From a virus (taxonomy: Duplodnaviria > Heunggongvirae > Uroviricota > Caudoviricetes): a DNA stretch of 64,000 bases. Below are positions 9,323 through 59,854 of the stretch, one piece after another (position 1 is the first letter of the stretch; every line of letters begins with the position of its first letter). The stretch lies in IMG/VR virus record IMGVR_UViG_3300034106_001169; one strand, written 5' to 3'. The notes beneath the pieces are model-generated. The model had not been told where the DNA came from. It saw only the letters and a program-made list of their open reading frames with translations, and did no database searches. The position numbers and the translations under genes were made by a program.

Positions 9323-9336
9323 AATTTCTTTTTATT

Positions 9337-9729: not shown

Positions 9730-9732
9730 AAC

Positions 9733-11334: not shown

Positions 11335-11360
11335 TTATATTTATTTTATATTTTATAATT

Positions 11361-13148
11361 TTAACAAGCTACACAACTACCTGTGAATGTCATTAATGTT
11401 ATTCCTGCACCTGGAACTTTGTAAACTTGTCTAAAATTAGTTCCATCAGAAACATAAGATGTACCTCCACTTAAAGGGTCAACATCAGGGGAATCAAAAG
11501 AGGTTGAATCACAAAGACCTGTTCCACCATTATAAGTAACTGATGTTAATATAAAGAAAGGTCCAGATTGTGTACAAGCATTAGGACCACTAATTGAAGA
11601 AAAAATCAATGTTGGACCTGGAGCAGCTGTTGTTGTAGTAGATGTTGTACTTGTTGTTGTAGCTTCAGCAGGAGGAATAGTAATTGTACTACCACTTGTA
11701 CCAGCCATCAATGTAGAAATACCTGATGTTGCTGCTGTACCACTAGAACCATCTGTACCTGTAGTTCCTGAAGTTCCACTAGATCCATCTGTACCACTGC
11801 TACCATCTGTTCCTGTTGTGCCTGATGTACCTGAAGAACCATCAGTTCCACTTGTTCCAGTTGTTCCAGAGCTTCCATCAGAACCTGATGTACCTGAAGT
11901 CCCACTTGAACCATCTGTTCCTGTAGTACCACTAGATCCTGATGTACCAGAAGATCCATCTGTGCCACTTGTTCCTGTTGTACCACTTGTACCATTTGAT
12001 CCATCTGTACCACTAGTTCCAGAAGAACCAGATGTTCCAGAAGATCCTGATGTTCCACTAGAGCCATCAGTTCCAGAACTGCCACTTGTACCTGAAGAAG
12101 CTGAAGTTCCAGAAGAACCATCAGTTCCTGTTGTACCAGATGAGCCATCTGTACCAGTTGTACCTGAAGTACCTGTAGATCCTGAAGTACCTGTAGTACC
12201 ACTAGTTCCACTTGAACCTGATGTACCACTTGAACCTGCACCACCTGTGGCACCATTCAAGTTAATTTGCCATGAGCTATATGTTCCACCACCTATTATT
12301 ATTGTAGGAGCATCAAAATTAAGTGCACCTGTAGCACTGTTATAAGAAATTACATTACACTCTTGATAGTTGTTAATATCATGAGCAATAATAATTGCTT
12401 GACCAACAGTGTAAGCTAAACCAAGACTCACTTGTAAAGTACCAGCATTACCTAATGTGAATGTTTGTACTGAGAAGGTTGCATATCTATCACCTGTAAA
12501 ACCTGAAGATCCAGATGTACCAGCTGAACCTGAAACACCACCAGAACCACTTGAGCCTGATGTACCAGCACTGCCAGAAGTTCCTGTAGAACCTGACGTA
12601 CCACTAGAGGCAGATGAACCAGAAGTTCCTGCACTACCATCTGTACCAGCAGATCCAGATGTACCAGAAGAGCCAGAGGAAGCAGATGTTCCAGAAGAAC
12701 CTGAGGTACCATGAGAACCAGTTGTACCACTTGTGCCACTTGTACCATGAGAACCAGAAGTACCTGATGAACCTGCTGTACCAGCTGTACCATTTCTACC
12801 ACTAGACCCAGAACTACCTGAAGTGCCAGCTGTACCATTCCTTCCAGAACTACCAGAGGTAGCAGAAGTTCCACTTCTACCAGAAGAACCAGATGTTGCT
12901 GAGGTACCATTAGTACCACTTATTCCATTGGTTCCTGAAACTCCACTAGTTCCATTTCTTCCAGAAGAGCCACTAGTACCAGACGTACCATAGCCAGCTG
13001 ATGCAAAAGCTGCATCAATCTTCTCTAATGCTGTTTGTAAATTGTCGTTGGTATTTATACCAGAGTATACAAGATAGGGGCCTTCGTAGAATACGCAGGT
13101 CGAATCCAATATAACTGGACATGGGGTTGCAGAGCAAGTAACGTTCAT
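11361..13148 (-). CDS. Collagen-like fibre protein with Cys-rich N-terminus and C-terminal Thr-rich/Cys domain
   Basis: MNVTCSATPCPV… N-terminus, Gly-X-Y runs ([13 protein letters not shown]…), internal module LAYTVGQAIIIAHD…VISYNSATGALNF…SSWQINLNG, more Gly-X-Y, then TTSTTSTTTT and a Cys-containing C-terminus. Confidence 0.75.
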   Translation of the reverse strand: MNVTCSATPCPVILDSTCVFYEGPYLVYSGINTNDNLQTALEKIDAAFASAGYGTSGTSGSSGRNGTSGVSGTNGISGTNGTSATSGSSGRSGTSATSGSSGRNGTAGTSGSSGSSGRNGTAGTAGSSGTSGSHGTSGTSGTTGSHGTSGSSGTSASSGSSGTSGSAGTDGSAGTSGSSASSGTSGSTGTSGSAGTSGSSGSGGVSGSAGTSGSSGFTGDRYATFSVQTFTLGNAGTLQVSLGLAYTVGQAIIIAHDINNYQECNVISYNSATGALNFDAPTIIIGGGTYSSWQINLNGATGGAGSSGTSGSSGTSGTTGTSGSTGTSGTTGTDGSSGTTGTDGSSGTSASSGTSGSSGTDGSSGTSGSSGTSGSSGTSGTDGSNGTSGTTGTSGTDGSSGTSGSSGTTGTDGSSGTSGTSGSDGSSGTTGTSGTDGSSGTSGTTGTDGSSGTDGSSGTSGTTGTDGSSGTAATSGISTLMAGTSGSTITIPPAEATTTSTTSTTTTAAPGPTLIFSSISGPNACTQSGPFFILTSVTYNGGTGLCDSTSFDSPDVDPLSGGTSYVSDGTNFRQVYKVPGAGITLMTFTGSCVAC

Positions 13149-40100: not shown

Positions 40101-42870
40101 GGAATACATATTGACACTTATCAAGTTGTCTTTGTTTAATACCTATATTACCAGTTAGAGGATTAGTAGCAGCATTCTGTATATCTGCACTATAGTCATA
40201 GCTAGAGACAGAGTTAAATGATTGTGCAAAGTTCTTTCTACTAATACCATTTAGGTAGATTTGTAAGTAAGTTTGATATGCTGTAAAGAATGCTACAGCA
40301 CTAAATCCTCCTAGGTCAGCAATCTTTTTGCTAGAGTTTAAGGCATCTATTTGAGTTTGTCTGGTAAGAAGCTTGTACATAGAATGCTTCTGTACCTCAA
40401 CAAAATGAGATCTTCCACCACCAAACAATACACTTTCTAATTTAAGAACATTACCTAATGTAGGTTGTCCAAAAGAAGTTTCTGGTGAATTAAATACTTG
40501 TCTATATTTAGATTCAATACTACTAAATCCATCTAAGTTATTTGGAAAACAATTAATATTTACTTTACTATTTTCCACTATAGTGAAACGATCACATCCT
40601 GATACAAATGTAGGAGCACCTATTGAATTAACTGTCACTGATGTATTAAATGGTACAGTGATAGTTTGTAAAGCTCCAGTTATAGGATCTAAATAATTAA
40701 ATACAGGTGCTGAAAAAGTTACACATTTATAAGTTGAAGAGATTATATAAGTGCTAGATGTAATGTTTGTAAATGTAGCTGCTCCTGTATTTACAACAGG
40801 AAGTGTAAGAGAACATATTTCAGTGGTAGCTGTAGTAAAATTTTGACTTGATACAGTGCCTGTATAACAATCTGTATATTGTAATGCACCATCAACTGTA
40901 GCTGTCACTTGGAAAGTATCACATTGAGACATGTAAGAATTGCTCTTCTCAAGTAAGAATGGATCTTTATCAAGGTCATTATATGGATAGTTAGGATAGT
41001 AAAAGTTTGTACCTTCTCTATTATACTTACCTACATTTCTCAATATACCTTTAGCAATAATAGATTTGTTTGCACTTCTATTTCCTCTCACTATTTTAAA
41101 TCCAACAATTGAAGCTTTTTCTTCAGTTGTTAAAGTAGATGTTTGAATTAAGAATGCTACCTGTTGTACATCTATTTTTACACCTATTGGATAGATGGCA
41201 TTAGAAGTTTGCATGATTGGTTCTATCTGACCACCTGAATATGTAATAGGAGGAGTCTCAAAGTAAGGAGAAACTAATACATCAGGAAATTTGTGATGTC
41301 TAATTTTCTGACCAGCAAGGTCTCCCCATACATCTACATTACAAGGATATTCTTCATCTTGAGCTTCCCAATAGGCAAATTCTCCAGATTGATATGGATA
41401 TGCTTGTCCTATATTTTCATTGGTAGAAACAGGATATGTAGTGGATACAGTGGCAGTGTTATATATCTTCCAATAAGGTTGAGGAGCTCCATCTCCTATG
41501 TAATCTGCATTAGCTGTTGTTACATCTGGCTGAGATAACTCTTGAGCATTTTTAACTCTACCAGGAATATGAAAGCCATCTGTTTGTTTACCATTATCTA
41601 ATAAAAATACTATCTCAAATGCATATATCTCATCTCTTAAATATCCTCTTAGATTAGCTGTATAGAAAGGATCTGCATAGCTGTTACCTGCTGGTAACTT
41701 ATAAGTTTCCCATTCTAATGTTATTTTACTAGCAATTGATTGATAGTTAATTCTATCAATAGAAGTAAGATTGTCCCAAACGATATAGTCTTGCACACTT
41801 GTAACATCTTGTGCAATATCATAATAAGGGAACTTCTCTAATATATCACCTAAGCTTAAAGGTATTTGTGTTTGGTTTTGACCTGAATAAGTGGCTGTTG
41901 TTATCTTGTCTTGAATCTTAAAAGTTCCTACAAGTTCTACACTGGTACCATTATTAATAGTCTTAATAACAGCTAAATTAAAATATTGGAAGTATCCTGT
42001 AATATCTACATTACCAATACTTAACAATATAGACTTTCCTACAGAGTATTGAAAATCAGGAGTAGTTATCTCTGTATTTGCAATAGATGTAGGATTAGTT
42101 ACAGAATAATAGGATGTGTATCCATCTCCTGAAGCATTACAATATTGAACAGCAAACTGATATGTACCTGCTTGTAAATCTCCACCTACAGCTGTTCCAG
42201 TAATATCTATGCTAGGAATAGAGAAGTTAGGTTGTACTTTTAACTTATTGCAATCAAGTACAGGAGTAACAATTGGATCACAATTTTGAGTACCTGCATA
42301 AGTTGAAATATAGGGAACTTGTTCAATGTTTATATATCTTCTTGGATTTAATCCATCAGTCCAATATACCTCAGTGGTACAGTTTGTAATCTTATGTACA
42401 GCCTTATGAATAGGATAGTTTATATCAAAGTTTAAGCATTCAGAGTTAGCACATACAGTGATTTCTAAATCAGGATATTCTGTACATAGTGTATGATATA
42501 CACAATCATTATTATCCATATATCCAATTTCACTTCCTCCTGTTTCAGGATTAGCTAAAAAGAATATGTGTTTGTTTTTCTCTTGAATGAAATGAGTTCC
42601 AATTAAATGATAGCCTTCAGGAAACTCTAAACAAGCTTCATTACTTGGCTCATTTTGATAACTTACAGAATTAGCATCAAAGTTTTCTAATGCTCCATTT
42701 AGGGCATAAGAAAGTTTACCCTTCTGTATTTGGTTTACAGAAGAATCCATATCTAGTCCAACTCTGCCAAGATTATACTCTTGTCTTATGTTAGATGTTC
42801 CTTCTTGGTTATCTGCCATATCTTGAGCTTCTGTTTGGTAGTTCATATTGTGCAAAGCGTTGTAAATCAT
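37192..42870 (-). CDS. Giant tail protein (1892 aa) with Thr/Pro-rich mucin-like linkers and a Cys-rich C-terminal region
   Basis: Longest structural ORF after the RNAP ORF. It contains TTTTTTTPVPLE…PPPTTTTTTTPTPPPTTTTTTTPPPTTTTTTT, encoded by ACN/CCN repeats at about 38100..38290. Only 10 nt separate it from the next gene. Confidence 0.6.
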   Translation of the reverse strand: MIYNALHNMNYQTEAQDMADNQEGTSNIRQEYNLGRVGLDMDSSVNQIQKGKLSYALNGALENFDANSVSYQNEPSNEACLEFPEGYHLIGTHFIQEKNKHIFFLANPETGGSEIGYMDNNDCVYHTLCTEYPDLEITVCANSECLNFDINYPIHKAVHKITNCTTEVYWTDGLNPRRYINIEQVPYISTYAGTQNCDPIVTPVLDCNKLKVQPNFSIPSIDITGTAVGGDLQAGTYQFAVQYCNASGDGYTSYYSVTNPTSIANTEITTPDFQYSVGKSILLSIGNVDITGYFQYFNLAVIKTINNGTSVELVGTFKIQDKITTATYSGQNQTQIPLSLGDILEKFPYYDIAQDVTSVQDYIVWDNLTSIDRINYQSIASKITLEWETYKLPAGNSYADPFYTANLRGYLRDEIYAFEIVFLLDNGKQTDGFHIPGRVKNAQELSQPDVTTANADYIGDGAPQPYWKIYNTATVSTTYPVSTNENIGQAYPYQSGEFAYWEAQDEEYPCNVDVWGDLAGQKIRHHKFPDVLVSPYFETPPITYSGGQIEPIMQTSNAIYPIGVKIDVQQVAFLIQTSTLTTEEKASIVGFKIVRGNRSANKSIIAKGILRNVGKYNREGTNFYYPNYPYNDLDKDPFLLEKSNSYMSQCDTFQVTATVDGALQYTDCYTGTVSSQNFTTATTEICSLTLPVVNTGAATFTNITSSTYIISSTYKCVTFSAPVFNYLDPITGALQTITVPFNTSVTVNSIGAPTFVSGCDRFTIVENSKVNINCFPNNLDGFSSIESKYRQVFNSPETSFGQPTLGNVLKLESVLFGGGRSHFVEVQKHSMYKLLTRQTQIDALNSSKKIADLGGFSAVAFFTAYQTYLQIYLNGISRKNFAQSFNSVSSYDYSADIQNAATNPLTGNIGIKQRQLDKCQYVFPGVQNVGDNHDLNNFNRESSIYTKTIEARSGVVVNPLPFPNQTPSLYIAGVSQISDNSRFTISQANNCSAPEQQEDIKVVSYYASIKAINNNQWGQIYSYQTIDTGFQRIFSSLPATEVIFGGDTYIGKFGFKTKLPFFIDNRVGAPDDSDIYYDELGNVAYPQYWYSARSELSDYFVGGTLMKNIISTKAHYLDCPNDYIVDNISTTTTTSSTTPAPGTVLAGSQNYIYDGKMYLFAYGIPYFYVESSINVDLRQAFNNLEGDFYPHVSSGIPDTWFQESRVPIALDNTYYYNTTFSKQNTENFFSHLPSDWIKQLCFTYFPFRAIYSDPQESYSDNRINNWLIYRPISFFDFPQNYGKLVSLDGIQNKATLARFENKSLLYGNLLTMNTSSPQAAFLGNPTLFTSAPAIDYAETDLGYVGSQNKFLLKIPDGQITIDAKRGQIFLIAGATKAIDISAFGSGLNRFFTDHLAFEILRHFPTANIDNHFNGLGLHGVYDSKFERIIITKLDYIPQPNKQIYYNEALQKFYINQPVAGNTSVIRYVNLTDVEYFCNKSWTASFNMNTKAWVSFHTYIPNFYIGENGFYYSGLNEGCELSAVAVTEIPSPTTTTTTTPVPLECALNGTATYVPPPTTTTTTTPTPPPTTTTTTTPPPTTTTTTTLTYCQSIGAGAGCFNWYFTAGATGAIVQWTDCNGNNQSSVLNEGESGSACLCDGYSPNVLEGSLAIISQVGQCGDITTTTSTSTTQSEWTTIEYGFNAFDPNQACDNYELNVLTTVYVLVVETPIVLGSHFYSLPSVGNPAPAGFYARPCNIPLSNCTYEVTGFDGEVTGIAECGTLTTTTTTTLPPAPTYVAIDASAIGYNETDAANTGICCIQKLIYVDSFGAFIFSELPIVPVPSGYTLVTQFWVDDNGVPYFDNASVMYVDQFLTIPAPAGYYGGAANGYRRIQGSVGLFSTPVTSCAGVPCL
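38100..38290 (-). repeat. ACN/CCN tandem repeats encoding Thr7-8/Pro3 mucin-like linker blocks in the 1892-aa tail protein
   Basis: ggtagtagtggtagttgtaggaggagga… units repeated at least three times on the plus strand (antisense of ACC/CCT codons). Confidence 0.6.
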
Positions 42871-43765
42871 TTCTTACTCTTCTTTGCTTAGTCCATACAT
42901 CTTGTTTCTTAATCTCAGTGTAAGCCATAATAAAGGCTTCTTCTGAAAGTTGCTTATAGTAAACTAACTTAGCTTGTATTTGGTTGAATGTCTCATCATT
43001 GATTTGGTTAGATAAGGTTTCAAAAACTTTATATTTAATAAAGGCTTCTACGTATTCTCTTATACGATAGTTATCAGGAATCAATTGATTACCTGTAGCA
43101 TCATAGTCTGTAGCATAGAAAATCATATGAACAACACCACAGCTGAAGTTTGTAACAAACTTATTATCTCTAATATCAAAGCTATCATAACCAGCACTTC
43201 CTGGAGTGAACTCATGCACAGGGGGTGCATTTGTATAAAACTGCCAAGCATCTGTATAGCTTACATCACATTTACCTTGGCAAGATATATTGCCTGGTTT
43301 TAATAAATACTCTTTTCTTATACCTCTAGCTATCTGTTGATTGGTTTTATATACAGCTTGGATGATATCAGGCATACACGTAGGACATCCTGTTGTACAT
43401 TGTGGATTAGTACATGGTACTCCACCACTAATAATAGGAGAGACTTGTATTGTTGTTTGGCTAGCTGCCTGAGAATAGAATGAGTTAGCTGTTTGATATG
43501 GAAGCTGAGGAATCTCTGTACACATCCAAGCTTCTCTAACAGCAAAGAAGTTGTCAGGAAGTCTAGCCTCATATCCAGAAATATCTAATGTCTGTTCAGC
43601 AATGACATAACTTGATCTACCCATCTTTTGTAGACACTTGTCTAAATAGGTGGGGAACATTAAATCATCAACTGCTCCTGTGTCAAAGTAAGATTTTAAC
43701 TCTTCTTTAACAATTGAATAGATTGGCTCAGGAGAGACAAAGTTGTATCTGTAATAGTATGCCAT
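42809..43765 (-). CDS. Hypothetical Cys-rich protein (318 aa)
   Basis: ORF whose 3' end overlaps the annotated start of the 1892-aa gene by 62 nt. It has CTNPQCTTGCPTCMPD. Confidence 0.45.
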   Translation of the reverse strand: MAYYYRYNFVSPEPIYSIVKEELKSYFDTGAVDDLMFPTYLDKCLQKMGRSSYVIAEQTLDISGYEARLPDNFFAVREAWMCTEIPQLPYQTANSFYSQAASQTTIQVSPIISGGVPCTNPQCTTGCPTCMPDIIQAVYKTNQQIARGIRKEYLLKPGNISCQGKCDVSYTDAWQFYTNAPPVHEFTPGSAGYDSFDIRDNKFVTNFSCGVVHMIFYATDYDATGNQLIPDNYRIREYVEAFIKYKVFETLSNQINDETFNQIQAKLVYYKQLSEEAFIMAYTEIKKQDVWTKQRRVRNDLQRFAQYELPNRSSRYGR

Positions 43766-43771: not shown

Positions 43772-44248
43772 TTATTTTTTCCATTCCCTATAAAGGTGCT
43801 GGTATTTGTCATCTGTTTTTATGTAATGTGACAGCAATCTAGAAGTAGAACGAGAAGGTTTGAAGTACCATAAGTTGATGTTACGAATTCTTGTAGACTC
43901 TTTAAACCACATCCAACCAAAAAAGAATCCTTCTGTATGGAAGTTAAAGTTATAAATGATCTTACCCTTTTGTTTTGTCTTTTGCCAATCAACTGGTAGG
44001 TTAACCATCTCCTTACCATCAACTGTTTTCATCTTCTTTCTCTTCTTTTTATTGATAGAGAATTCACCAAAGCCAAAAGGAAGTCTTGCTTTCTCTCCTG
44101 TTTCTAGAATGTAGTTTTTGAAATGTTCATTATATTGATATATAATGTTTCTCCACTCATCAAATGTAACTTTTATGGTGGGATTTTTTCTGCAGAAATT
44201 GTTGTAGTTTTCTTTACTGGAGCTTCTCCAGTCAATCTTGGTTCGCAT
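43772..44248 (-). CDS. Hypothetical basic protein (158 aa)
   Basis: Lys/Arg-rich (KKKRKKMK), Trp-rich. No family recognised. Confidence 0.4.
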   Translation of the reverse strand: MRTKIDWRSSSKENYNNFCRKNPTIKVTFDEWRNIIYQYNEHFKNYILETGEKARLPFGFGEFSINKKKRKKMKTVDGKEMVNLPVDWQKTKQKGKIIYNFNFHTEGFFFGWMWFKESTRIRNINLWYFKPSRSTSRLLSHYIKTDDKYQHLYREWKK

Positions 44249-44985
44249 TAACTAGTTGGTTTAGCATTAGGAGCCTGACCATCTATACCATCAAATGTCA
44301 TGTCAGTCTTAATGCTAAAGTAAGTAGATAATAGTTTTTGAGATGTTAACTCTAATACTTGCTTTTCTAAATAACCAGGACATCCAAACTCCTTATCCAA
44401 TGGATTCATACAGTATTCTTCATCGCTCACTGTAGGAGATGGGCCACATGCACAGTCTGATGGGTATAGTATCTCATTAGGAACATCTTCTTCAAAGAAT
44501 GCAGAAATTCTCACTGAGTGCAAATTAGGATTATTAATGTATAAATATCCTCCATTTGCTATCCAGTAATATTGTTCAGCTCTAATGATAGGTAGCTTTA
44601 ATAAATTTAAGTATCTGTTAATTGTAATCTCTTTAAATCTTTTTCCTTTACCACCCATAGCGTTGATAGAATATACACCTTGTATTAGATATTGATAGTT
44701 TCCTTCACTGATGCGAGGAAGTTTGAATCTGCTTCTTGCCACTTGACAAGGATCAACATACTCACAGCAATCAGAAATAGGAACCTCTATCATCTCTAAA
44801 CAAGGAAGCGTTTGGAATACAGTGTCTGTAGCCCAAAGCTTTCTGAGATTTGTTTCTCTCTTTACCAATAAAAATGTATTGTTTCTAACCTCAGACGCAA
44901 CAACCCTATCAGTGATAAGGTTATCTGTTGTTAATAGTTTGTGCATTGCACGAACATCTGAGACCATTTTTCTTAATGTAGCCAT
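44248..44985 (-). CDS. Hypothetical protein (245 aa)
   Basis: ORF with 1-nt overlaps on both sides. Confidence 0.45.
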   Translation of the reverse strand: MATLRKMVSDVRAMHKLLTTDNLITDRVVASEVRNNTFLLVKRETNLRKLWATDTVFQTLPCLEMIEVPISDCCEYVDPCQVARSRFKLPRISEGNYQYLIQGVYSINAMGGKGKRFKEITINRYLNLLKLPIIRAEQYYWIANGGYLYINNPNLHSVRISAFFEEDVPNEILYPSDCACGPSPTVSDEEYCMNPLDKEFGCPGYLEKQVLELTSQKLLSTYFSIKTDMTFDGIDGQAPNAKPTS

Positions 44986-46235
44986 TATAAATACTGTTTG
45001 AATATATTTGTTATTCCTTCATCATAATCAATTAGGAATCCTGTAACTTCTGCTTTAGACATCGTATGACCATTCTTATCATCCCATAGACTCTTAGCAT
45101 TTGAGAATGCTGGGATCTGGTAAAATTTAATACCATTGAAATCATGACTCACTTCATGGTGTTTGTCTCCTGTGAATATATAGAACTTATCATGGTAAGA
45201 CCACCCTGCTCTATATTCTATTGGAAACAATGCAGCAAGCTTTGCAGGTTTAATAGCATCTCCATGATTAAACATCAATGCTGATTGACCATAGCTTACA
45301 TACTTTCTATACTTAGGAGAACAATCAAATGTTACTCTCCCTGTATTTCTAAAGTAGGTTTGTAACCAATTAACCATATGCCATCCTACAAACTCATCAT
45401 GATTACCTGCTACATATACTACCTTCACTTCATGACCATACTGTAATAACATTGTAATCATTAAGATCTCATGTCCACAGATATACTCAAAAGAAGTGTG
45501 ATATGTGTGAGTGTTTGTTTGAGGAGTTCCTTTTGTAGTCATACCAGTGTATTCACTATTGAACTCATCAGATCCAATGATATATGTAATTTGTTCTAAG
45601 TTATTTGAAAGCTGAGCTTGGTTAGCTATCAACTCCACCTTGTACATGATATGAGCTAGTCTATTAGTAACATCATTGTTACCATCTATGTCATATTTGT
45701 TCAAGTGAGAGTCTTGTTTGTTGATGACTAACATACCTTTTGGTTTGTCAAAGTCAACCTTAGGACTCATAACCTCTTGACTTACAGGCTTATATGAAGC
45801 TAAAAAGTCTACAAACGCATCTTGAAAAACTTGTTCTGTAGACTTCTTCCCTAACCAGGCTTTGACTTGCCAATGTGGATTCCCACCATTTCCCCAGTAG
45901 TTCTGTACGTACTTGGTGATTTCCCATTTGTCTGTGTCAATCTTACACTTTACTATGAGCTCATCTAAGCTCTTAATTTCATCTTTTGTATTGAAGACAA
46001 TCTCTCCTGTTCCTTTAGCTATATCCTCTTCAAATCTCACTATTGTTTCCTCTAGCTCAGAAACATAGTTACCTACCTCTGCCACTTCTTCAACAAGTTC
46101 TCTATTTCTTAACTCTATCAACAACTCATCAACCTCTGATTCTGTAATTCCAAGCTTGTCAGCGTAGAACTTTTTACTCTTTTTCCAATGTAGGATTTCT
46201 TCTAGCTGGTTTAGTAATGCTTGATTCTCAGGCAT
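44985..46235 (-). CDS. Calcineurin-like metallophosphoesterase domain protein
   Basis: Ordered motifs IIGSDEF, VYVAGNHDEF (the GNHD/E motif), MFNHGD and FTGDKHHEVSHD match the metallophosphatase signature set. Confidence 0.5.
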   Translation of the reverse strand: MPENQALLNQLEEILHWKKSKKFYADKLGITESEVDELLIELRNRELVEEVAEVGNYVSELEETIVRFEEDIAKGTGEIVFNTKDEIKSLDELIVKCKIDTDKWEITKYVQNYWGNGGNPHWQVKAWLGKKSTEQVFQDAFVDFLASYKPVSQEVMSPKVDFDKPKGMLVINKQDSHLNKYDIDGNNDVTNRLAHIMYKVELIANQAQLSNNLEQITYIIGSDEFNSEYTGMTTKGTPQTNTHTYHTSFEYICGHEILMITMLLQYGHEVKVVYVAGNHDEFVGWHMVNWLQTYFRNTGRVTFDCSPKYRKYVSYGQSALMFNHGDAIKPAKLAALFPIEYRAGWSYHDKFYIFTGDKHHEVSHDFNGIKFYQIPAFSNAKSLWDDKNGHTMSKAEVTGFLIDYDEGITNIFKQYL

Positions 46236-46418: not shown

Positions 46419-46982
46419 TTAGCATTGGAACTCATAATATTCAAAGGTGCCACTTATAAGCTTCCAAGATATATTCTCTGAATCATAGAATAAAGCAGTG
46501 ATAGGAGCACCTACAGCGTTTCTAGCAATTGCTGTACATGTTATAGAACTGCCTCCTCCTAGGCCTGCAAACGAGTCACCATTGGCTACAAATAAGGCAT
46601 AGTCAGAAGCATCTAAGAATATTCTTAAAATTGAACCTGTAGGACATCCATCATATCCAGCATAACGTCCTATATCAGCTAAATATAATTCATCTGGATT
46701 AGGGGTTGTAGACGTAGAAGTTGTGCTTGTGCTACTTGTAGAAGTGGTGGTGGTTGTTGGAGCTCCAGATACAATTAAGTAAAGGTCTCTTTGACAAACT
46801 CCTGTAGATCTTACAAGAACTTCTGTAGTTCCATCTGGAGCTAGGCTTGAAGTATATCCAGCAATAAGAGCTGCTCTAGAAATACCAGTTTCAAATGCTG
46901 TTGTGTAACCATCTGCATTTGAGTATAAGTTGAATGGACCTGTATCAGATCCTGCTAGGGTAAGTGTTATTAATACTGTCAT
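46419..46982 (-). CDS. Hypothetical structural protein with Ser/Thr-rich linker (187 aa)
   Basis: N-domain paralogous to 36315..37181. It has TTTTTSTSSTSTTSTSTTPNPDE, and is followed by a strong terminator. Confidence 0.5.
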   Translation of the reverse strand: MTVLITLTLAGSDTGPFNLYSNADGYTTAFETGISRAALIAGYTSSLAPDGTTEVLVRSTGVCQRDLYLIVSGAPTTTTTSTSSTSTTSTSTTPNPDELYLADIGRYAGYDGCPTGSILRIFLDASDYALFVANGDSFAGLGGGSSITCTAIARNAVGAPITALFYDSENISWKLISGTFEYYEFQC

Positions 46983-46993: not shown

Positions 46994-47920
46994 TTATGGT
47001 CTTACTAAAACTAAAAATCCTCGTCTAAATCCTGCACCATCTCCTAAGTTTATACTATAGAAATATGTTCCGTCAATAGCATCTACTCCTACATTATTGT
47101 ACTTACCATTCCAAGGAACATATACAGCTCCTGAAAAATTAGCATACCAAACATTTTGACTTATATCAAAAATTTCCCATACTGCATTTGGATAACACGT
47201 ATAGTTTAAAAGTTCCCATGTACCACCTCTTTTGCCTTGCCATTGCCATGTGTCATCTATACCATCACCATTGGGAGAAAATCCCCCTGAAAATAATATC
47301 TGTGTATATGCACATGGTCCTGGAGGTGGGGGAGGTGGTAAAGAACAACCTCCACTAATTCCAAGAGGTGATGATATCAATTGTATATTAGTTGATGTAC
47401 TATAACAAGAACCATCACATACACCTGACATTGCACAGTTCCTATATGTATAAGTTCCAAATTGTCCAAATCCTTGATATTGACCTGCATTTACATTAAG
47501 ATTTGTAATAAGTGTATCACTTATTTGATAAGGAGGAACATCTTCTTGTTCAAAATAATCATACTGAACTTCAAAAGTTAAAGTAGTTGGTGTATAATAA
47601 GCATTGCCAAACTGATCAATAAGAGATATTGTCCAAGTCTCAAATGTATCTGTATAACCATTACAACCTGGATACAAGTTATTAGTTATAGTTAAATTAT
47701 AACAAAGTAAAAATGGTGTAGTTTGTGGAACTATATCCTGATATGGAGGAAGTCTATTTCCAGTATATCCAGATAATGCAGCTGTATCTGCATAATAATT
47801 TGTAAGAATAAAGTCTTTTGTAGCACATTGATTTCCACTAGGAGGATTTGCTCCTGGTTTTTGAATTAATCCCATTGTGGTTAAATCTGTATATGTTACT
47901 AAAGCATTATTTGTTTTCAT
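46994..47920 (-). CDS. Structural protein with C-terminal T9SS type-B (gliding-motility-associated) C-terminal-domain-like module
   Basis: C-terminus is FSGGFSPNGDGIDDTWQWQG…VWEIFDISQNVWYANFSGAVYVPWNGKYNN…GTYFYSINLGDGAGFRRGFLVLVRP. This matches the FxPNGDGxND…W.G…G.Y.Y…G hallmark of Bacteroidota CHU_C/T9SS type-B sorting domains. It is preceded by a PPPPPPGP linker. Confidence 0.55.
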   Translation of the reverse strand: MKTNNALVTYTDLTTMGLIQKPGANPPSGNQCATKDFILTNYYADTAALSGYTGNRLPPYQDIVPQTTPFLLCYNLTITNNLYPGCNGYTDTFETWTISLIDQFGNAYYTPTTLTFEVQYDYFEQEDVPPYQISDTLITNLNVNAGQYQGFGQFGTYTYRNCAMSGVCDGSCYSTSTNIQLISSPLGISGGCSLPPPPPPGPCAYTQILFSGGFSPNGDGIDDTWQWQGKRGGTWELLNYTCYPNAVWEIFDISQNVWYANFSGAVYVPWNGKYNNVGVDAIDGTYFYSINLGDGAGFRRGFLVLVRP

Positions 47921-47935: not shown

Positions 47936-49495
47936 TTATAATATACAAGCTCCATTACAAGTTGTGGCAGATGGAAGAGTAAGTAATATTGGAGTACTAC
48001 CTGAACTAGTTGATTGTGTTATTTGATAAACAAATCCAGTTACACCTATATCTGCATAGAATCTATTTATTATAACAGAAGTTCCAGTTGGAAATCCTAC
48101 TAGTACATTTGTACTTGTTATATTACAACCTGAACAATTATATTCATCTGCTAAATAATAATCATAATTTGGATTTGCTGTGGTAGATGTTGTAGTTGTA
48201 GTGGTACCAGGAATATCAAGAAATCTTGACTTACTTAATCCTCCAAAAGTATAAGCTGTTGGAATAGATTGTGACGCCCAACTTGACCATGTTATACCAT
48301 TGTTATAAGTTATTTGAGCACTGTCTATATATGTTATCAATGCATAAGTTCCATCTGAATTAACAAATACTCCTCCTGGTGTTTGTCCAATTGCTGGAGC
48401 ACTTGGATTTGTATCAAAGACAGTAAAGCTAACACCATAATTTGTAGAGAAGTAAAATTTATTTAATGTATTATTAGTATTAACTAATGCTACTAACATA
48501 TACTGTCCATTCTCAGACATATCACAATAGAGTGCTCTATCATATTGATCATATGTTTTTTCAATAAATGATGCACCATAGTTAGAAGATAAATATATCC
48601 TTCCTTCTCCTTGTGTATTACCTGTACCAAAACTAGACATTTGTGATAATAATTGATATTGTCCTGAAGTATTTATAGCTACATCTGTCCAATATTTTAA
48701 ATTATAATCACCACTAACACTAAATGACACTCCAAAGTTAGAAGACTTAATTATTCTAGATCCCCAATCAAATGAGTTATTTTGTTTATTTACAACACAT
48801 GTAATATATCTACCATCACCAGAACATGCTATTTTTGGATAAGGAATTTCTATAAGTTCATTAGAACCAATAGCAGAATAGTAAATTTCACTCCAAGTAA
48901 CTCCATAGTTAGATGATTTACATATAGATGGTCCTACTGTGTTACTACCATATGTAATTATATACATATATTGACCATCGCTTGAAACAGCTGTTCCAAC
49001 AATACTTTGAATTGAACTAGGTGATGCTGGTAATGAACATGAACGTGTTGTCCATGTTACTCCATAATCACTTGAGACTTTTATATTATTAGTTTGTGTA
49101 CCTGTTAATACATATTGTCCTCTACCACTTCTAGAAACACTATATCCAGTAACAGTAGTACTTGACCATGTTACACCTGAGTTACTTGAATATATTACAG
49201 TTCCATAGGTTGGTACACCTGGTGGAGTATAAGGATTTACGTCATCAACTCCATATATTCTATTAGAATATAAAAGAGGATCCAAATCACTTTTAACAAC
49301 TAGTTGATTAGCAGATTTACTAGAAAAGCTTGGATAGGAAGTATTTAAGGCAACATAAGATGATGCCTCAGTTTTAGTTATTTGTTTTTGACTTACAGGA
49401 ATAGTAGAGGTAGGAATAAATACACCAGTATCTACACCATCCTGAAGATTATTACAAGAAACTGTTTGATTACTTGCTATGCCTGACCAACTCAT
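47936..49495 (-). CDS. BNR/Asp-box repeat beta-propeller protein (sialidase/Ycf48-like fold), likely a tail receptor-binding or glycan-binding protein
   Basis: At least seven SxDxGxTW-type repeats: SSNSGVTWSS, SSDYGVTWTT, SSNYGVTWSE, SSNFGVSFSV, SSNYGASFIE, STNYGVSFTV, YNNGITWSS. Confidence 0.65.
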   Translation of the reverse strand: MSWSGIASNQTVSCNNLQDGVDTGVFIPTSTIPVSQKQITKTEASSYVALNTSYPSFSSKSANQLVVKSDLDPLLYSNRIYGVDDVNPYTPPGVPTYGTVIYSSNSGVTWSSTTVTGYSVSRSGRGQYVLTGTQTNNIKVSSDYGVTWTTRSCSLPASPSSIQSIVGTAVSSDGQYMYIITYGSNTVGPSICKSSNYGVTWSEIYYSAIGSNELIEIPYPKIACSGDGRYITCVVNKQNNSFDWGSRIIKSSNFGVSFSVSGDYNLKYWTDVAINTSGQYQLLSQMSSFGTGNTQGEGRIYLSSNYGASFIEKTYDQYDRALYCDMSENGQYMLVALVNTNNTLNKFYFSTNYGVSFTVFDTNPSAPAIGQTPGGVFVNSDGTYALITYIDSAQITYNNGITWSSWASQSIPTAYTFGGLSKSRFLDIPGTTTTTTSTTANPNYDYYLADEYNCSGCNITSTNVLVGFPTGTSVIINRFYADIGVTGFVYQITQSTSSGSTPILLTLPSATTCNGACIL

Positions 49496-51114
49496 TATTT
49501 ATTTAATTTAGCTTCTAACTCAGCAATACGTTTTTCTAGTTGAGCAATCTTCCAGCTATGTACTTGTGTATAATCCACTACTAAGAAACCATCATCTTTT
49601 ACTTCTATAGCATCAGGAAGAAACTGTTGTACTTGTTGTGCTATGTATCCCCAGTGTTGTTTAGTATCTCTTTCTGGATTATTCCAAGCATACATTACAG
49701 TTTCTATATTTTCTGATTGAATAGCACCTAAAACAGTTTTAAGTCTTAAGTCAGAGTTTTGGAAGAAAGAGTCTGCATATATTGAATTACCACTTACATA
49801 TACACTTGAGTTTGTAAATCCAGAGTTTGCGTTAGTACATATAACTATTGCTCCTGCAGTTGCTGGAGAGATAGTTGTAAATCCAGGACCAGTTGGGCCA
49901 GTAGGGCCAGTTGCTCCTTGGGGACCTTGGGCACCTTGAGGACCAGTAGGACCAGGTCCTCCTGTTGCTCCTTGAGGTCCTGTAGCTCCCTGTGGTCCAG
50001 TTGGACCAGGACCTCCTGTTAAACCTTGTGGTCCAGTAGCTCCTTGTGGACCTTGAGGGCCAGTGGGACCAGCAGCACCAGAAGTACCAGCTGTTCCTGT
50101 TGCACCACTAGAGCCAGTAGCTCCAGATGTGCCAGCTGTTCCTGTACTAGTTCCTGCTGTAGCTGATGTACCAGAACTAGCTGATGTACCTGCTGTACCT
50201 GATGTACCTGCTGGTCCAATAGAACCAGAAGTACCACTTGTACCATTACCACCAGCAGCTCCAAATAAGTTTACAGTCCAAGCTGCATATATTCCTGAAC
50301 CTGTTGTTGCTATTATATTAACAACCATAGCACCTGTAAGACTATCATAGCTTGTAACAGTGCCTTCCATTGTATTAGAACCATCATATGCCAAAAGTAT
50401 TGTTTGAGCAACACTATAAGCTAATCCTGTACCAGTAGTTAAAGTTTGAGTACCATTTCCTATTGTTAAAGATGTGACAGAAGATGATAGGTATCTATCT
50501 CCATCTAAACCAGCTGTACCAGAAGTACCTGCTGGTCCTATTGAACCTGACGTTCCTGCTGTTCCTGCTGGTCCTATTGAGCCTGACGTACCAGACGTAC
50601 CCATTGTACCATCTGCAGCAGATGTACCTGAACTTCCTGAACTTCCAGAAAGACCAGAAGAAGCAGATGTACCATTAGTTCCAGAAAGACCAGCAGAACC
50701 TGATGTACCATTAGAACCTTCTCTACCAGAACTTCCAGATGTTCCACTAGAACCAGTGTCACCACTTGTACCAGATGAACCAGCAGCACCACTAGCACCT
50801 GAGCTACCTGAAGTGCCAGATGAACCACCAGGTCCTGTAGCACCTGAACTTCCAGATGTACCAGCAGTGCCTGTAAGACCACTAGAACCAGAAGTTCCAG
50901 AAGTACCATTAATACCAACAACACCATTGCAAAGAGCGTCATCTATTTTTGATAGAGCACAGTCTAAGTTATCTCCAGTGTGAATTCCTGAACAAGGAAG
51001 GTTTGGTCCATTATATATAACATTACCTGCTGTGGTTGCACAAGGAAGTGAACTACAGTTTTGGTTAGGATGATAGTAAGCATTGTAACAAGGATCTCCA
51101 GGATTGCAAGCCAT
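49495..51114 (-). CDS. Collagen-like tail fibre with C-terminal S74-like intramolecular chaperone domain
   Basis: Cys-rich N-terminus [14 protein letters not shown]…, Gly-X-Y runs including [28 protein letters not shown]…, internal [14 protein letters not shown]…[13 protein letters not shown]…AAWTVNLFG module, C-terminal [14 protein letters not shown]… (SDxRxK signature) and ELEAKLNK. Confidence 0.75.
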
Positions 51115-56331: not shown

Positions 56332-57885
56332 TTAGAATTGAGGAATCTCTTCAATCAATACTGTACGAGATAAATCTTCGATAAATACATCACAACGATC
56401 TTTCATCCAAATCTCATATCCAGGGAATTTATTTGCAGAACTCATACCTTGAGACTTAGCAAAGCCTAAGTGGTGACGAGTACCATCGATATAACCCCAA
56501 GTCATAGAAGGTGCACCCTTCATACGTACTTCACGAATATTATTGATCATAGAACCATCAGACATTGGAGATACATCAAACACCATAAATACTGGAGTTG
56601 ATTTCTTGTTTTGTCCAAATTCTAAATTTGTTTGAGGTAAGTCTAATTCTTTCAAGTGAATTAATTCAACACGACCAGTCTCACGAGTTACCATTGCATC
56701 GAATGCAAAGTTGTAAGTGATATGTTGACCTTCACCTTGCATGTATCTGTTACCAGAATCAGCCATGAAAGTAAGACCAGAATTCAAAGCATCTGTTTTT
56801 AAAGCTTGTTGGAATACATCAAAGCCAGCTTCATTAGTGTACATTTTAACACGTCTGTCTTTAACATCCACACGTCTGTAGAATAAGTCACCAAATACAG
56901 AACGAATTAAGTTCGCAGTGAACTCACCTCTGTTGTACTGTACTAAGTTACCATTGTTACGCATTCTGTGATATACACCAGCAGAAGTACGCTTTAATTC
57001 TTGCTTAGAACCATTAGTCTTCACAGTTCCAGGACGAGCCCAGATCATACGCTTAACTTTTAATTCTAACATAGACTTACGCATCCAGAACTCAATAAAT
57101 GGTTCCCACTTAACATCGTTACGAGTTAAAGGTAATTGGTTACGTCTTTGAGGAGCATATACTAAGATATCTAAAGGTTTGCCAGAAGCATCTCTCATCA
57201 TCTTGTCATCAGCCCACTCAGTGATTTTGTGCTCATAACCATATGCAGAACCTAAAGATTCAAACATAGTGATTTGCTCACCTAAACGAGGAAGACCTAA
57301 TAAGTCTTGGTCGAATTCACCAATCGCAGCATCAACTAACTCTAATTCCACACCCACTTGCAAGAAGATAGGGCTTACGAAATCTACAGTTGGGTTGTCA
57401 CTCACTAAAGTGAAAGTGTATAAGAATCCAACGTTCCAAGGAACTGGATCTTTTACTACGTAAAAACGAGGACCATATTGACGTGTACCTACAGAGATAA
57501 TTGCGTTCTTAGAAAATTCATTAGTATCAACAATTACTTGAAACTCTTGTCCATCAATACCAGGCTTGTTTAATTCCTGTGTAGAAGTTGGAACATCAAT
57601 AAATTTTGGGAACTTGTAAGGTACTTGCACTTGCCATTTCCAAGCATCACTATTGTTATCAATATAGTAAGGAGTAGACTTGTTAATCATGTCTAAGAAG
57701 TCATTACTATAAAGAGAACTCTGAGTGTATAAGCTGATGATTTTCTTATCATAGTCAGCAGGCTCAGTTGAGTGAAAGCTCTCTAAATGGTTTGCGTCAG
57801 TCAATTTACCTACAGCACGCTTGTCCATAGAAGCTACTCTAGCATAGGTAAAACCAGTTAAACCTGGGATTGTTTGAATTGCCAT
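56332..57885 (-). CDS. Major capsid protein candidate (517 aa)
   Basis: Call rests on position (portal, SPFH, scaffold-like, then this ORF), size and the strong hairpins immediately 3'. No capsid-specific motif was recognised from sequence. Confidence 0.45.
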   Translation of the reverse strand: MAIQTIPGLTGFTYARVASMDKRAVGKLTDANHLESFHSTEPADYDKKIISLYTQSSLYSNDFLDMINKSTPYYIDNNSDAWKWQVQVPYKFPKFIDVPTSTQELNKPGIDGQEFQVIVDTNEFSKNAIISVGTRQYGPRFYVVKDPVPWNVGFLYTFTLVSDNPTVDFVSPIFLQVGVELELVDAAIGEFDQDLLGLPRLGEQITMFESLGSAYGYEHKITEWADDKMMRDASGKPLDILVYAPQRRNQLPLTRNDVKWEPFIEFWMRKSMLELKVKRMIWARPGTVKTNGSKQELKRTSAGVYHRMRNNGNLVQYNRGEFTANLIRSVFGDLFYRRVDVKDRRVKMYTNEAGFDVFQQALKTDALNSGLTFMADSGNRYMQGEGQHITYNFAFDAMVTRETGRVELIHLKELDLPQTNLEFGQNKKSTPVFMVFDVSPMSDGSMINNIREVRMKGAPSMTWGYIDGTRHHLGFAKSQGMSSANKFPGYEIWMKDRCDVFIEDLSRTVLIEEIPQF

Positions 57886-59323: not shown

Positions 59324-59854
59324 CTAATCTAATTTGTTAGTAAAATTGTCATTTATAAGTCTAAAGCTTCTGATTGGAGCCAAGTCAGTAAGGGTAACTT
59401 GTTGAACCTCAACTCCCCACTTCCTAGCTTCCACCCTAACCTTCTTTGTCAAAGTGTTGTCAAGTTCTGAATCTGTACATTCATCCATACTCATAGACAT
59501 AATGACATTTTTGATGATGCTTTGAGACATATCTGACAGAGCATCCTGGGCATCAAATACCTCAAGAAGAAATATCTTGACATCAGCTATCTTATATTTA
59601 ATGACTCCTTTCACTACAATGTTCTGCTTGTCTTTAGTATATAAAGATTGGGCATCTAAACTGAGAGTTGTGACAACCACATGTTGGTCAATCACTTCAT
59701 CAAATAGAGGCATCTTGAAATGTATTCCAGGTTTGAGTACTCTTTTAAAGATACCAAACCTGAGTAATACTGCTTCTTCATAGTCTCTAATAATGATAGC
59801 TGGTGTGAGTTGTAACCACCAATTGGTGATTATCTCTATCAGTTTATCAAACAT
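59324..59854 (-). CDS. SPFH/band-7 (stomatin/prohibitin-like) domain protein
   Basis: EEAVLLRFGIFKRVLKPGIHFKMPLFDEV, TKDKQNIVVKGVIKYKIADV and ARKWGVEVQQVTLTDLAP align with the SPFH core consensus (…AVV.RFG…L.PGLHF.IPFID.V…TKDN..V.VD.VV.YRI.D…WGI.V..V.I.DI.P). Confidence 0.7.
   Translation of the reverse strand: MFDKLIEIITNWWLQLTPAIIIRDYEEAVLLRFGIFKRVLKPGIHFKMPLFDEVIDQHVVVTTLSLDAQSLYTKDKQNIVVKGVIKYKIADVKIFLLEVFDAQDALSDMSQSIIKNVIMSMSMDECTDSELDNTLTKKVRVEARKWGVEVQQVTLTDLAPIRSFRLINDNFTNKLD

Follow-up and report, generated by a model that had tools for sequence, protein, structure and literature searches.

We analyzed a 64,000-nt stretch of viral DNA (here called the window) in which one open reading frame (ORF) of 308 aa probably encodes, in a reading that we hold with modest confidence, a small tail-appendage protein belonging to a crAss-like phage of environmental origin, with a host-derived CHU_C domain exapted as a distal binding module. 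Presence in the virion, distal position, and binding function are all properties that we infer. The conserved N-terminal segment probably plugs the protein into the fiber/hub assembly and would be followed in order by a cysteine-rich beta-sandwich, a proline linker, and the distal beta-sandwich. The latter would descend from the type B CTD (C-terminal domain) of the Bacteroidota type IX secretion system (T9SS), or CHU_C, captured long ago by phages. Without a signal peptide, the protein would be produced in the cytoplasm, the sorting role of the domain having been lost, and the domain would serve as an exposed, fast-evolving, and exchangeable tip of a tail protein, most likely acting as an adhesin or an accessory module for receptor binding that attaches to a component of the host surface.

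The window carries matches to Crass_capsid (92.5 bits), crAss_MUZ (112.9 bits), CrAss_Ring_1, and CrAss_Ring_2, as well as to PHROG portal and terminase families, and is thus from a crAss-like phage. The ORF is located between the collagen/S74 fiber and BNR-like genes and the ring genes, on the same strand and with gaps of 11 to 15 nt (Table 1), and this neighborhood is kept in all of the related contigs examined (L001 to L006, L008, and L009). An earlier note on this DNA had spoken of a phage structural ORF; the phage part is well founded on the above markers, while the structural part comes down to gene position and synteny, which suggest a protein of the tail module.

Table 1. Positions of the 308-aa ORF, its parts, and the genes around it (window coordinates)
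Feature	Position	Strand	Remarks
Whole ORF, tail-module protein with CHU_C-like C-terminal domain	46994..47920	-	308 aa; stop codon 46994-46996; from the ORF list
N-terminal conserved segment, aa 1-65 (NALVTYxDL...ATKxFI), proposed attachment region	47726..47920	-	most conserved region of the family; without signal peptide
Central beta-sandwich domain, aa 66-194, of no known family	47339..47725	-	six long strands, pLDDT 83-93
Proline-rich linker, aa 195-202 (PPPPPPGP)	47315..47338	-	pLDDT<50 at residues 196-201
C-terminal CHU_C-like beta-sandwich, putatively type B CTD-derived, aa 203-308	46997..47314	-	Pfam match aa 212-304 = nt 47009-47287
BNR/Asp-box-like repeat protein, 519 aa, probable fiber-associated, upstream neighbor	47936..49495	-	sub-threshold BNR matches; 15-nt gap to ORF
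Collagen-like tail fiber with Peptidase_S74 chaperone C-terminus	49495..51114	-	Collagen 105.5 bits, Peptidase_S74 29.7 bits; PHROG tail fiber families
Downstream neighbor, 187 aa: conserved N-half, Thr-rich linker, exchangeable C-half	46419..46982	-	11-nt gap to ORF
Conserved 416-aa protein immediately upstream of ring protein 2	44985..46235	-	phrog_704, 146.5 bits
Crassvirus tail ring protein 2	44248..44985	-	PF25702, 46.5 bits
Crassvirus tail ring protein 1	42809..43765	-	PF24228, 34.4 bits
Crassvirus muzzle protein, 1892 aa	37192..42870	-	PF25731, 112.9 bits

The AF2 model of the whole protein (monomer) had a mean pLDDT of 84.7, with the linker as the sole segment of very low confidence; linker length differs between family members. 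The central domain, with five cysteines invariant in the family alignment (C73, C162, C168, C172, and C192), had no Pfam or PDB sequence match. The 26 full-length homologues in the family are each about 300 aa long and metagenomic without exception. No tblastn match to the ORF at E<=0.01 was found in 50,697 phage records, leaving it with no homologue in a cultured phage, and megablast of the surrounding 8.3 kb against the same records gave no match either. When PDB sequences were searched with the family profile, nothing came up below E 0.1, the solved components of PhicrAss001 included.

The evidence on the C-terminal domain begins with Pfam, in which PF13585 (CHU_C) was the sole family matching the ORF, even at E<=10 (33 bits versus the gathering score of 27 bits, E 6.6e-8, aa 212-304); the isolated last 108 aa scored 36.4 bits. 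NCBIfam TIGR04131 (T9SS type B sorting domain), however, reached 25.4 bits with the full-length protein and 31.3 bits with the isolated domain, both below its curated cut-off of 35 bits, and was matched at E<=1e-3 by 9 of the 27 family members. Therefore, the HMM check proposed in the earlier note, for which it had named both models, gave a divided answer, PF13585 coming out above its threshold and TIGR04131 below. Every motif quoted for the end of the ORF (46994..47300, which takes in the stop and roughly the final 101 codons) was present in the translation. The domain sits at the extreme C-terminus, the PF13585 match ending at aa 304 and that of TIGR04131 at aa 306.

A chance or compositional match could draw on the low TIGR04131 score and on the fact that just 18 of the 26 relatives have a precomputed PF13585 match, but we consider it extremely improbable given the Pfam score and E value, and it was ruled out by the reciprocal profile search. 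In that search, a profile built from the domain of 21 family members was run against 1.84 billion proteins and found 376 of them at E<=1e-3, and nearly all were matched at their C-terminus (within 12 residues of it in 140 of the 147 matches retrieved). Nine out of 10 sampled matches had PF13585 at 60 to 95 bits. Direct alignment of the window domain with canonical bacterial CHU_C tails gave 37 to 41% identity, and 16 invariant columns are shared between the phage domain and the bacterial tails. These comparisons show the C-terminal domain to be truly homologous to the CHU_C/type B CTD family of Bacteroidota.

Five conserved blocks have been described in the last 100 aa of type B CTDs, each reported to be necessary for secretion (PMC12618676); we placed the observed blocks tentatively, by alignment, on motifs A to E of that work. 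The translation contains FSPNGDGIDDTW (aa 214-225), VPWNGK, GTYFYSI, and GFLVLVRP, and the window protein retains four of the five blocks, namely, PNGDGxDD-W, PW.G, GTYFY, and the terminal G-hydrophobic-R (G..L.R), with the NRxG block replaced by DISQ. The erosion is more marked in the family as a whole, where conservation of the blocks is 12 to 73% in 33 phage-type proteins at positions conserved at 74 to 100% in the tails of 35 signal-peptide-bearing bacterial proteins. For PNGDGxND, the values are 55 to 61% versus 74 to 97%, and for the N, R, and G of NRxG the frequencies are 0.12, 0.27, and 0.73 versus 0.77, 0.89, and 1.00. Thus, NRxG is gone almost entirely, and PNGDGxND is gone in about 45% of members. 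There are also phage-specific invariant residues (Y42, W50, Y61, Y68, W71, and G96 in profile numbering). The spacer after the first block is 17 aa in the window protein and 15 to 20 aa in the phage-type CTDs where it could be measured, versus 8 aa in most bacterial tails. A long spacer is common to the phage domain and one bacterial subclass; SprB repeats were found in all eight of the checked bacterial proteins with a long spacer and in none of the six with a short or near-canonical one (8 to 9 aa). The spacer sequences of the phage and bacterial versions are not alignable.

Modeled alone, the CTD gave a confident compact seven-strand beta-sandwich (pLDDT 94.5), and solved T9SS type A CTDs were among its best structural matches (NucA 8glk_D, RemA 8gl6_D, RemZ 8gl8_D, and mirolase 8qb1). 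Fn-type domains of streptococcal SpyCEP/ScpA (5xyr and 7bj3) were also among the best matches, at 20 to 27% identity. Calling the motif a hallmark of the T9SS CTD was therefore too strong, as it is not unique to it. A Foldseek comparison of the full-length model with the PDB yielded generic tandem beta-sandwich matches only (TM about 0.2). These were uninformative, since the model leaves it uncertain how the two domains are oriented toward each other; the model of the CTD alone resolved this issue.

The N-terminus of the window protein has a maximum 10-residue Kyte-Doolittle hydropathy of 0.67, with no predicted transmembrane segment or signal h-region. This maximum does not exceed 1.63 in any of the 26 relatives, while it is >=2.0 in 40 of the 84 full-length domain-carrying representatives. 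By this hydropathy heuristic (not SignalP), neither the window protein nor its 26 relatives have a Sec signal peptide. The cognate PorP/SprF-like shuttle gene of a type B substrate is usually found directly downstream. Here, the downstream 187-aa protein had no Pfam or PHROG match and is not PorP/SprF-like, and there was no match to the PorP/SprF family among 37 window proteins scanned against Pfam, a set that took in almost every ORF of >=176 aa and excluded three short ORFs (120, 130, and 173 aa) that do not overlap others. All T9SS substrates require a Sec signal peptide (PMC12618676). As a cytoplasmic protein without one, the product would carry a domain whose function in secretion or sorting has been lost, and as far as can be told from sequence, the domain is unable to act as a normal secretion signal; this agrees with the earlier expectation that it could not serve secretion in the usual way. 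Because the export signal is absent, the domain is most likely a binding tip and not a secretion tag. Phage-encoded ORFs with T9SS CTDs have been read before as genuine cargo, as in the type A CTD genes of "Cryophage" (PMC7468147), and the above-threshold CHU_C match at the extreme C-terminus would suit a non-virion product exported to the surface of the infected cell, e.g., for superinfection exclusion or surface remodeling. We find this very unlikely, as the absence of a signal peptide already refutes it for the most part; the lack of an adjoining PorP/SprF-like gene, the TIGR04131 score, and the embedding of the gene in a tail-fiber operon also speak against it, and the secreted-cargo reading was rejected.

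Variation within the family increases toward the C-terminus, with mean pairwise identity falling from 62.5% in the N-terminal segment to 46.3% in the middle domain and 43.4% in the CTD. The parts are also exchanged, as the N-terminal segment is replaced wholesale in four members (P0022 to P0025) and the CTD in another (P0026), while P0027 combines the same N-terminal segment and CTD with a different middle. The phage-type domain appears on at least three further architectures, for two of which a phage tail-fiber neighborhood was shown: a 1222-aa Ig-rich protein of another crAss-like contig (L011), upstream of ring 2 and ring 1, and a DUF5977 protein located four genes after a collagen tail fiber (L097). 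A conserved N-terminus with a variable, exchangeable distal part fits the behavior typical of a receptor-binding protein. The earlier suggestion of an acquired beta-sandwich module finds support in the predicted fold, the shuffling among tail-module proteins, and the N-to-C conservation gradient.

A purely structural or assembly role, in which the domain acts as a folding nucleus, an oligomerization cap, or an Ig-like "velcro" decoration that holds to mucus or particles without a specific receptor, or the protein is an assembly factor absent from mature virions, strikes us as unlikely. C-terminal assembly modules are in use in this phage, whose other fibers end in Peptidase_S74 chaperone domains, and mucus adhesion has been reported for Flavobacterium phages with Ig-like domains (PMC6867891). 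However, conservation is lowest in the CTD, which also moves between architectures, and this fits host-interaction pressure better than fixed assembly, and the phage-specific invariant residues point to a maintained function.

The CTD displayed on the virion could also mimic T9SS cargo and recognize a PorP/SprF-family shuttle or anchor, or the SprA translocon, as receptor or first docking site. The four blocks retained by the window protein and the long spacer shared with the SprB-repeat subclass would favor such a role, as would the finding that type B CTDs bind their cognate PorP/SprF shuttles and remain with them at the surface (PMC12618676 and PMC9143113). Mutations in gliding and T9SS genes have been linked to phage resistance in Flavobacterium in two reports (bioRxiv 10.1101/2020.10.02.323337 and PMC9804748). 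Nevertheless, we judge it quite unlikely, since in F. johnsoniae, mutation of a single motif, whichever of the five it was, did away with secretion or with recognition by the shuttle (PMC12618676), while the phage family has lost NRxG and, in many members, PNGDGxND as detailed above; in addition, the spacers cannot be aligned, and surface shuttles would normally already be filled by their own cargo. The specific version in which a SprB-type type B CTD on the tail docks into the PorP/SprF-family anchor or the gliding/T9SS apparatus of the host, imitating an adhesin tag, is equally doubtful, if not more so. If it were true, it would provide a molecular reason for the phage resistance of T9SS and gliding mutants of Flavobacteriia and would represent the first instance in which a virus has made a receptor-binding device out of a secretion-signal domain. 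With a defined domain at hand, phage targeting of the T9SS/gliding apparatus becomes directly testable.

The domain resembles the type B CTDs of Bacteroidota (e.g., those of SprB-repeat adhesins) in overall identity, above-threshold Pfam score, extreme C-terminal location, the four retained blocks, and the long spacer of the SprB-repeat subclass. The protein differs from type B substrates in having neither a Sec signal peptide nor a cognate PorP/SprF gene, in scoring under the TIGR04131 cut-off, in its DISQ and phage-specific signature residues, in its size of just 308 aa, and in being encoded in a tail operon. T9SS-type CTDs on variable genes of Bacteroidota-linked phages were already known from "Cryophage," with type A sorting domains on enzymes interpreted as secreted cargo (PMC7468147), and from cluster 2 gut phages with BACON or T9SS sorting-domain ORFs, for which the type of CTD was not stated (PMC6949934); both studies left their function unresolved. 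In contrast, the domain described here is apparently type B derived, comes without a signal peptide in a crAss-like tail-fiber module, and forms a diverged subfamily spread over several architectures. Phage structural proteins often display beta-sandwich modules, as the crAssphage BACON paper (PMC6949934) notes with reference to Fraser et al. 2006, and the Ig-like accessory domains presented there have in common with ours a small all-beta module on a tail or fiber protein, promiscuous exchange, and presumed weak or accessory surface binding. Unlike I-set, Big_2, or Fn3 domains, however, this one would originate from a lineage-restricted bacterial secretion/anchoring domain. The principle is thus not new, as both T9SS CTDs in phage ORFs and Ig-like tail modules are already known.

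In PhicrAss001, gp22 is docked by its N-terminal residues 1 to 26 into the THA/THB hub, and further fiber proteins are attached (PMC10172136). The window phage is likewise a crassvirus and encodes ring 1, ring 2, and muzzle, with several fiber proteins encoded together and a short conserved N-terminal segment that may serve for attachment, although no sequence similarity of the ORF to any PhicrAss001 protein was detected and the gene order around the hub differs.

The phage-specific signature patterns of the domain matched nothing in 185,579 species genomes (GTDB), and the best cellular identities were just 29 to 41% among the matches listed. For both reasons, an old capture of the domain by phages appears probable, with what is now a phage-specific subfamily. 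With patterns taken from canonical bacterial tails, 79 of the best 80 cellular homologues among the matches listed were from Bacteroidota, in line with the tie to this phylum proposed in the earlier note. One caveat is that, judged by capsid and portal, the nearest phage in culture was recorded on a cyanobacterium, Leptolyngbya; that phage lacks the gene for the 308-aa protein (tblastn). No tRNA genes that could hint at the host were found in the window. Since the nearest cultured relative of this uncultured crAss-like clade was recorded on a cyanobacterium, the domain is useful as a sequence marker tying the clade to Bacteroidota. More generally, a lineage-restricted bacterial sorting/anchoring domain seems to have been captured by phages and, without its secretion context, reused as an exchangeable tail tip in at least four architectures, making the 308-aa protein a concrete candidate for receptor-binding studies.

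The genes next to the ORF show different degrees of stability. The 416-aa protein is syntenic in every related contig and in Leptolyngbya phage Lbo-JY46, and the 519-aa BNR-like protein is kept as the upstream neighbor in L001 to L006 and L009. In L009, the homologue of the 187-aa downstream protein keeps the N-half, with the C-half swapped. The 519-aa protein might also share an N-terminal anchor with two CTD-bearing proteins (P0033 and P0034), a weak similarity (E 0.007, in a single pairwise comparison, and 0.11) on which the proposed reading does not rest.

All motifs quoted in the earlier note are found in the translation of a minus-strand ORF encoding a 308-aa protein that ends in ...PPPPPPGPCAYTQILFSGGFSPNGDGIDDTWQWQGKRGGTWELLNYTCYPNAVWEIFDISQNVWYANFSGAVYVPWNGKYNNVGVDAIDGTYFYSINLGDGAGFRRGFLVLVRP. 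The only Pfam family assigned to it, even at an E value of ≤10, was CHU_C (PF13585, "Type IX secretion signal domain"), matched at aa 212 to 304 with 33 bits (E value of 6.6e-8; gathering score, 27) and with 36.4 bits when the last 108 aa were searched in isolation. The stricter NCBIfam model of the type B sorting domain of type IX secretion systems (T9SS), TIGR04131, gave 25.4 bits for the whole ORF and 31.3 for the isolated domain, both under its curated cutoff of 35 bits. Hence, the refuting condition named in the earlier note, HMM scores under threshold, has a divided outcome: the domain was recovered above threshold with PF13585 but not with TIGR04131.

A profile built from the C-terminal domains (CTDs; aa 203 to 308 in the window protein) of 21 family members gave 376 matches (E value of ≤1e-3) among 1.84 billion representative proteins. 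Matches ended within 12 residues of the C terminus in 140 of the 147 retrieved, in proteins ranging from <100 to >4000 aa. Nine of 10 sampled matches carried Pfam CHU_C at 60 to 95 bits, accompanied by SprB repeats, PKD, DUF11, or beta-propellers, and are adhesins and enzymes typical of T9SS type B. In direct alignment, which contains a 10-residue insertion after PNGDGxDD-W, the window CTD was 37 to 41% identical to bacterial CHU_C tails, with 16 invariant columns. The reciprocal profile search and this identity indicate that, judged by sequence, the homology to type B CTDs is real, as previously claimed; the reciprocal search also refutes a chance match, the probability of which is negligible.

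In the full-length AF2 model (pLDDT of 84.7), an N-terminal segment is followed by a sandwich of six strands (aa 70 to 185), a PPPPPP linker that is disordered, and a second sandwich at the C terminus. Modeled alone, the CTD forms seven strands (pLDDT of 94.5 and pTM of 0.84). T9SS CTDs and components are heavily overrepresented among the top structural matches of this model, which include PorZ (score of 6.9), the mirolase CTD (6.4), RemZ (6.4), RemA (6.3), PorU (5.9), FspA (5.7), and the RgpB CTD (5.4); S-layer, glycosidase, and streptococcal protease sandwiches scored in the same range. No structure of a type B CTD exists for comparison (PMC12618676). The confidently predicted sandwich is compatible with a CTD but, by structure alone, cannot be told from a generic Ig-like sandwich, and the CHU_C assignment rests on sequence. 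The Fn-type domains of ScpA (C5a peptidase, 7bj3_A) and SpyCEP (5xyr_A) align with the CTD model over 90 to 94 residues at 20 to 27% identity, above every solved T9SS CTD, which hints at a common ancestry of CHU_C and these streptococcal protease domains; the FSPNGDG-type motif may perhaps not be unique to T9SS tails.

The genome is that of a crAss-like phage, bearing out the phage identity given before. Pfam detected Crass_capsid (92.5 bits), crAss_MUZ (112.9 bits), CrAss_Ring_1, and CrAss_Ring_2, and PHROGs identified the large terminase, portal, and major head protein. Minus-strand genes follow the order terminase, portal, SPFH protein, capsid, tail protein, collagen-like fiber with a Peptidase_S74 end, 519-aa BNR-like protein, 308-aa ORF (flanked by gaps of 15 and 11 nt), 187-aa modular protein, conserved 416-aa protein, ring 2, 158-aa protein, ring 1, muzzle, and giant ORFs, the longest of 3655 aa. 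The ring, hub, and muzzle proteins of PhicrAss001 are structural components, and short N-terminal segments attach its fibers to the hub (PMC10172136). The highly conserved 416-aa protein, located within the tail module directly before ring protein 2, at about the position of the PhicrAss001 tail hub genes, has homologs in many unrelated siphophages. The four giant ORFs past the muzzle gene, one of them of unusual length, had no Pfam match at an E value of ≤1e-3; judging from position, they probably encode cargo or virion RNA polymerase-type proteins of crassviruses.

Coordinates of the features discussed (window positions unless a contig is named)
Feature	Location	Strand	Remarks
CHU_C-tailed ORF	46994..47920	minus	308 aa; contains the interval 46994-47300 of the earlier note
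Collagen-like fiber with Peptidase_S74 end	49495-51114	minus	
519-aa BNR-like protein	47936-49495	minus	
187-aa modular protein	46419-46982	minus	
Conserved 416-aa protein	44985-46235	minus	PHROG "DNA repair exonuclease" family phrog_704, 146.5 bits
SPFH/Band 7 domain protein	59324-59854		Between portal and capsid-region genes; 89.6 bits
Giant ORFs downstream of muzzle gene	13301-18307, 18307-29274, 29274-32060, 32137-35010		1668, 3655, 928, and 957 aa
Regions behind the Lbo-JY46 capsid/portal comparison	56332-57885 and 59857-62439		
Short DUF5977 proteins	L097 6093-7031; L094 645-1463; L096 118-1068		No signal peptide

T9SS substrates require a Sec signal peptide as well as the CTD; in type B, five conserved motifs are all necessary, and the cognate PorP/SprF shuttle gene usually lies directly downstream (PMC12618676). 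The window protein lacks a Sec signal peptide, its top 10-residue N-terminal hydropathy being 0.67 (a heuristic, not SignalP). The value was ≤1.63 in all 26 relatives, but among 84 full-length representatives with the domain, 40 reached ≥2.0. Pfam found no PorP/SprF member among the 37 window proteins scanned and no family in the ORF downstream of the 308-aa gene. When 35 tails of signal-peptide-bearing bacterial proteins were compared with 33 phage-type tails, PNGDGxND was conserved at 74 to 97% versus 55 to 61%, and the NRxG block at 0.77 (N), 0.89 (R), and 1.00 (G) versus 0.12, 0.27, and 0.73, the window protein having DISQ instead. PW.G and L..G are retained in phage-type tails, to which near-invariant Y42, W50, Y61, Y68, N77, and G98 (profile numbering) are peculiar, and 9 of 27 family members match TIGR04131 (E value of ≤1e-3). 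The type B motifs thus appear partly eroded. Together with the missing signal peptide and shuttle partner, this agrees with the earlier expectation of no ordinary secretion role: the CTD is a homolog of type B CTDs that does not function as one in the usual way.

We lean, with moderate confidence, toward a virion tail appendage, in which the N terminus would dock to the fiber/hub assembly and the distal, host-derived sandwich would serve as an adhesin or an accessory module for receptor binding that touches the cell surface, its secretion role having presumably been lost. It seems unlikely that the protein serves only in structure, assembly, or adherence to mucus. Mimicry, with the CTD still recognizing PorP/SprF-type shuttles or the translocon, is in line with the phage resistance that gliding and T9SS mutations confer on Flavobacterium, according to two reports (bioRxiv 10.1101/2020.10.02.323337; PMC9804748), but is weakened by the motif erosion in phage-type tails, and we regard it as quite improbable. 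True secreted cargo, the least credible of these roles, is largely ruled out by the absent signal peptide.

Among 5.8 billion proteins, the ORF had 26 full-length relatives, of ca. 300 aa each and all metagenomic; tblastn (E value of ≤0.01) found no homolog in cultured phages. Every contig inspected (L001 to L006, L008, and L009) shares a neighborhood of fiber, usually BNR-like protein, CHU_C ORF, usually small modular protein, 416-aa protein, Ring_2, Ring_1, and muzzle, the two optional genes being missing from L008. Mean pairwise identity drops along the protein, from 62.5% (aa 1 to 65) through 46.3% (central domain) to 43.4% (CTD). Modules are exchanged within the family, since P0022 to P0025 have a different N terminus, P0026 has a different C-terminal domain, and P0027 combines the family N terminus and CTD with another middle. 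There is further modular exchange within the same fiber block: the 187-aa ORF and the C terminus of the 519-aa protein have in common a Thr-rich linker, after which come NP..D.YLAD and a small domain, and a homolog of the 187-aa ORF (L009, 8039-8683) keeps the N half with a different C half.

Beyond this family, the top profile matches differ in architecture. The Ig-rich protein P0031 (1222 aa; 86 bits to the CTD profile) comes from a 131-kb crAss-like contig (L011), with collagen/S74 fiber and fn3 genes around it and Ring_2 and Ring_1 downstream. P0037 combines DUF5977 and CHU_C, and its gene lies four genes after a collagen-like tail fiber (phrog_5073, 186.7 bits) on contig L097, where the other genes are on the same strand and unannotated. 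P0032 to P0034 are short proteins with yet another N terminus, the last two with DUF5977. All of these lack a signal-peptide-like N terminus, so the CTD moves as a module among tail-region proteins of phages. A CHU_C-type tail scoring above the threshold stored by Pfam is present in two of the three short DUF5977 proteins in the table (L097 and L094). From its neighbors, L097 looks phage-like; L094 and L096 are too short for such a judgment. Their central motif is common to P0032 and P0053, which suggests that a second phage family employs this C-terminal module.

Phage structural proteins are classical carriers of Ig-like modules. T9SS CTD ORFs have been noted twice before in Bacteroidota-linked phages, adjoining BACON ORFs in gut phage lineages (PMC6949934) and in "Cryophage," where CTDs on variable enzyme genes were described as unique and interpreted as secreted cargo (PMC7468147); the latter are type A, whereas the window CTD is type B derived. 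What is new is this type B-derived domain as a diverged, signal-peptide-less, phage-specific subfamily, its place in the tail-fiber module of environmental crAss-like phages across several architectures, and a link that may exist to the SprB-type subclass.

This link comes from the spacer that separates the first conserved block from the "YP" strand after it and measures 8 aa in 52 of 74 measurable representatives and 14 to 20 aa in 15. All measurable phage-type CTDs are long spacer, with spacer sequences not alignable between phage and bacterial versions. Among Pfam-examined bacterial proteins, SprB repeats occur in 8 of 8 with long spacers versus 0 of 6 with 8 to 9 aa, a correlation suggesting that the phage CTD derived from the CTD subclass of SprB-repeat adhesins. 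Scanning with canonical CHU_C patterns, each of 185,579 species being represented by a single genome, and confirmation with the window CTD yielded at least 316 relatives, of which the best 80 (29 to 41% identity) include 79 from Bacteroidota (among them Chitinophagaceae, Mucilaginibacter, Pedobacter, Flavobacteriales, and Cytophagales). The other one (L034, 3001-3243) belongs to a MAG labeled Janthinobacterium lividum and is probably a binning error or contaminant. Phage-specific CTD patterns matched none of these species genomes, so the capture would be old rather than a recent pickup from the current host.

Portal homologs at 24 to 27% identity belong to crAss-like phages of Bacteroides, Flavobacterium, Cellulophaga, and Azobacteroides. 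The best portal match (29%, 274 bits) and the sole capsid match (26%) are, however, from Leptolyngbya phage Lbo-JY46, recorded on a cyanobacterium. Its 125-kb genome (PP438436.1; region L093, 80000-118000) is syntenic with the window (terminase, portal, capsid, fiber, 416-aa-like protein, ring-sized genes, and giant gene) and by tblastn has no homolog of the 308-aa ORF; apparently, either this is a crAss-like phage from outside Bacteroidota or its host has been misassigned. The tie to Bacteroidota made in the earlier note is thus strengthened by the CTD relatives and tempered by this nearest cultured phage, and a Bacteroidota host is the best inference, short of proof.

Elsewhere in the window (114-5804 and 5830-13148), a modification-enzyme cluster adjoins five collagen-repeat fiber genes with Peptidase_S74 ends, the sixth being the fiber gene in the table. 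The enzymes are GT1 and GT9-like glycosyltransferases, DUF6445, a sulfotransferase, and three 2OG-Fe(II) oxygenases (two PF13759 and one P4H-type PF13640). This set suggests that collagen-like tail fibers are hydroxylated, glycosylated, or sulfated in a crAss-like phage, which recalls the collagen modification of mimivirus.
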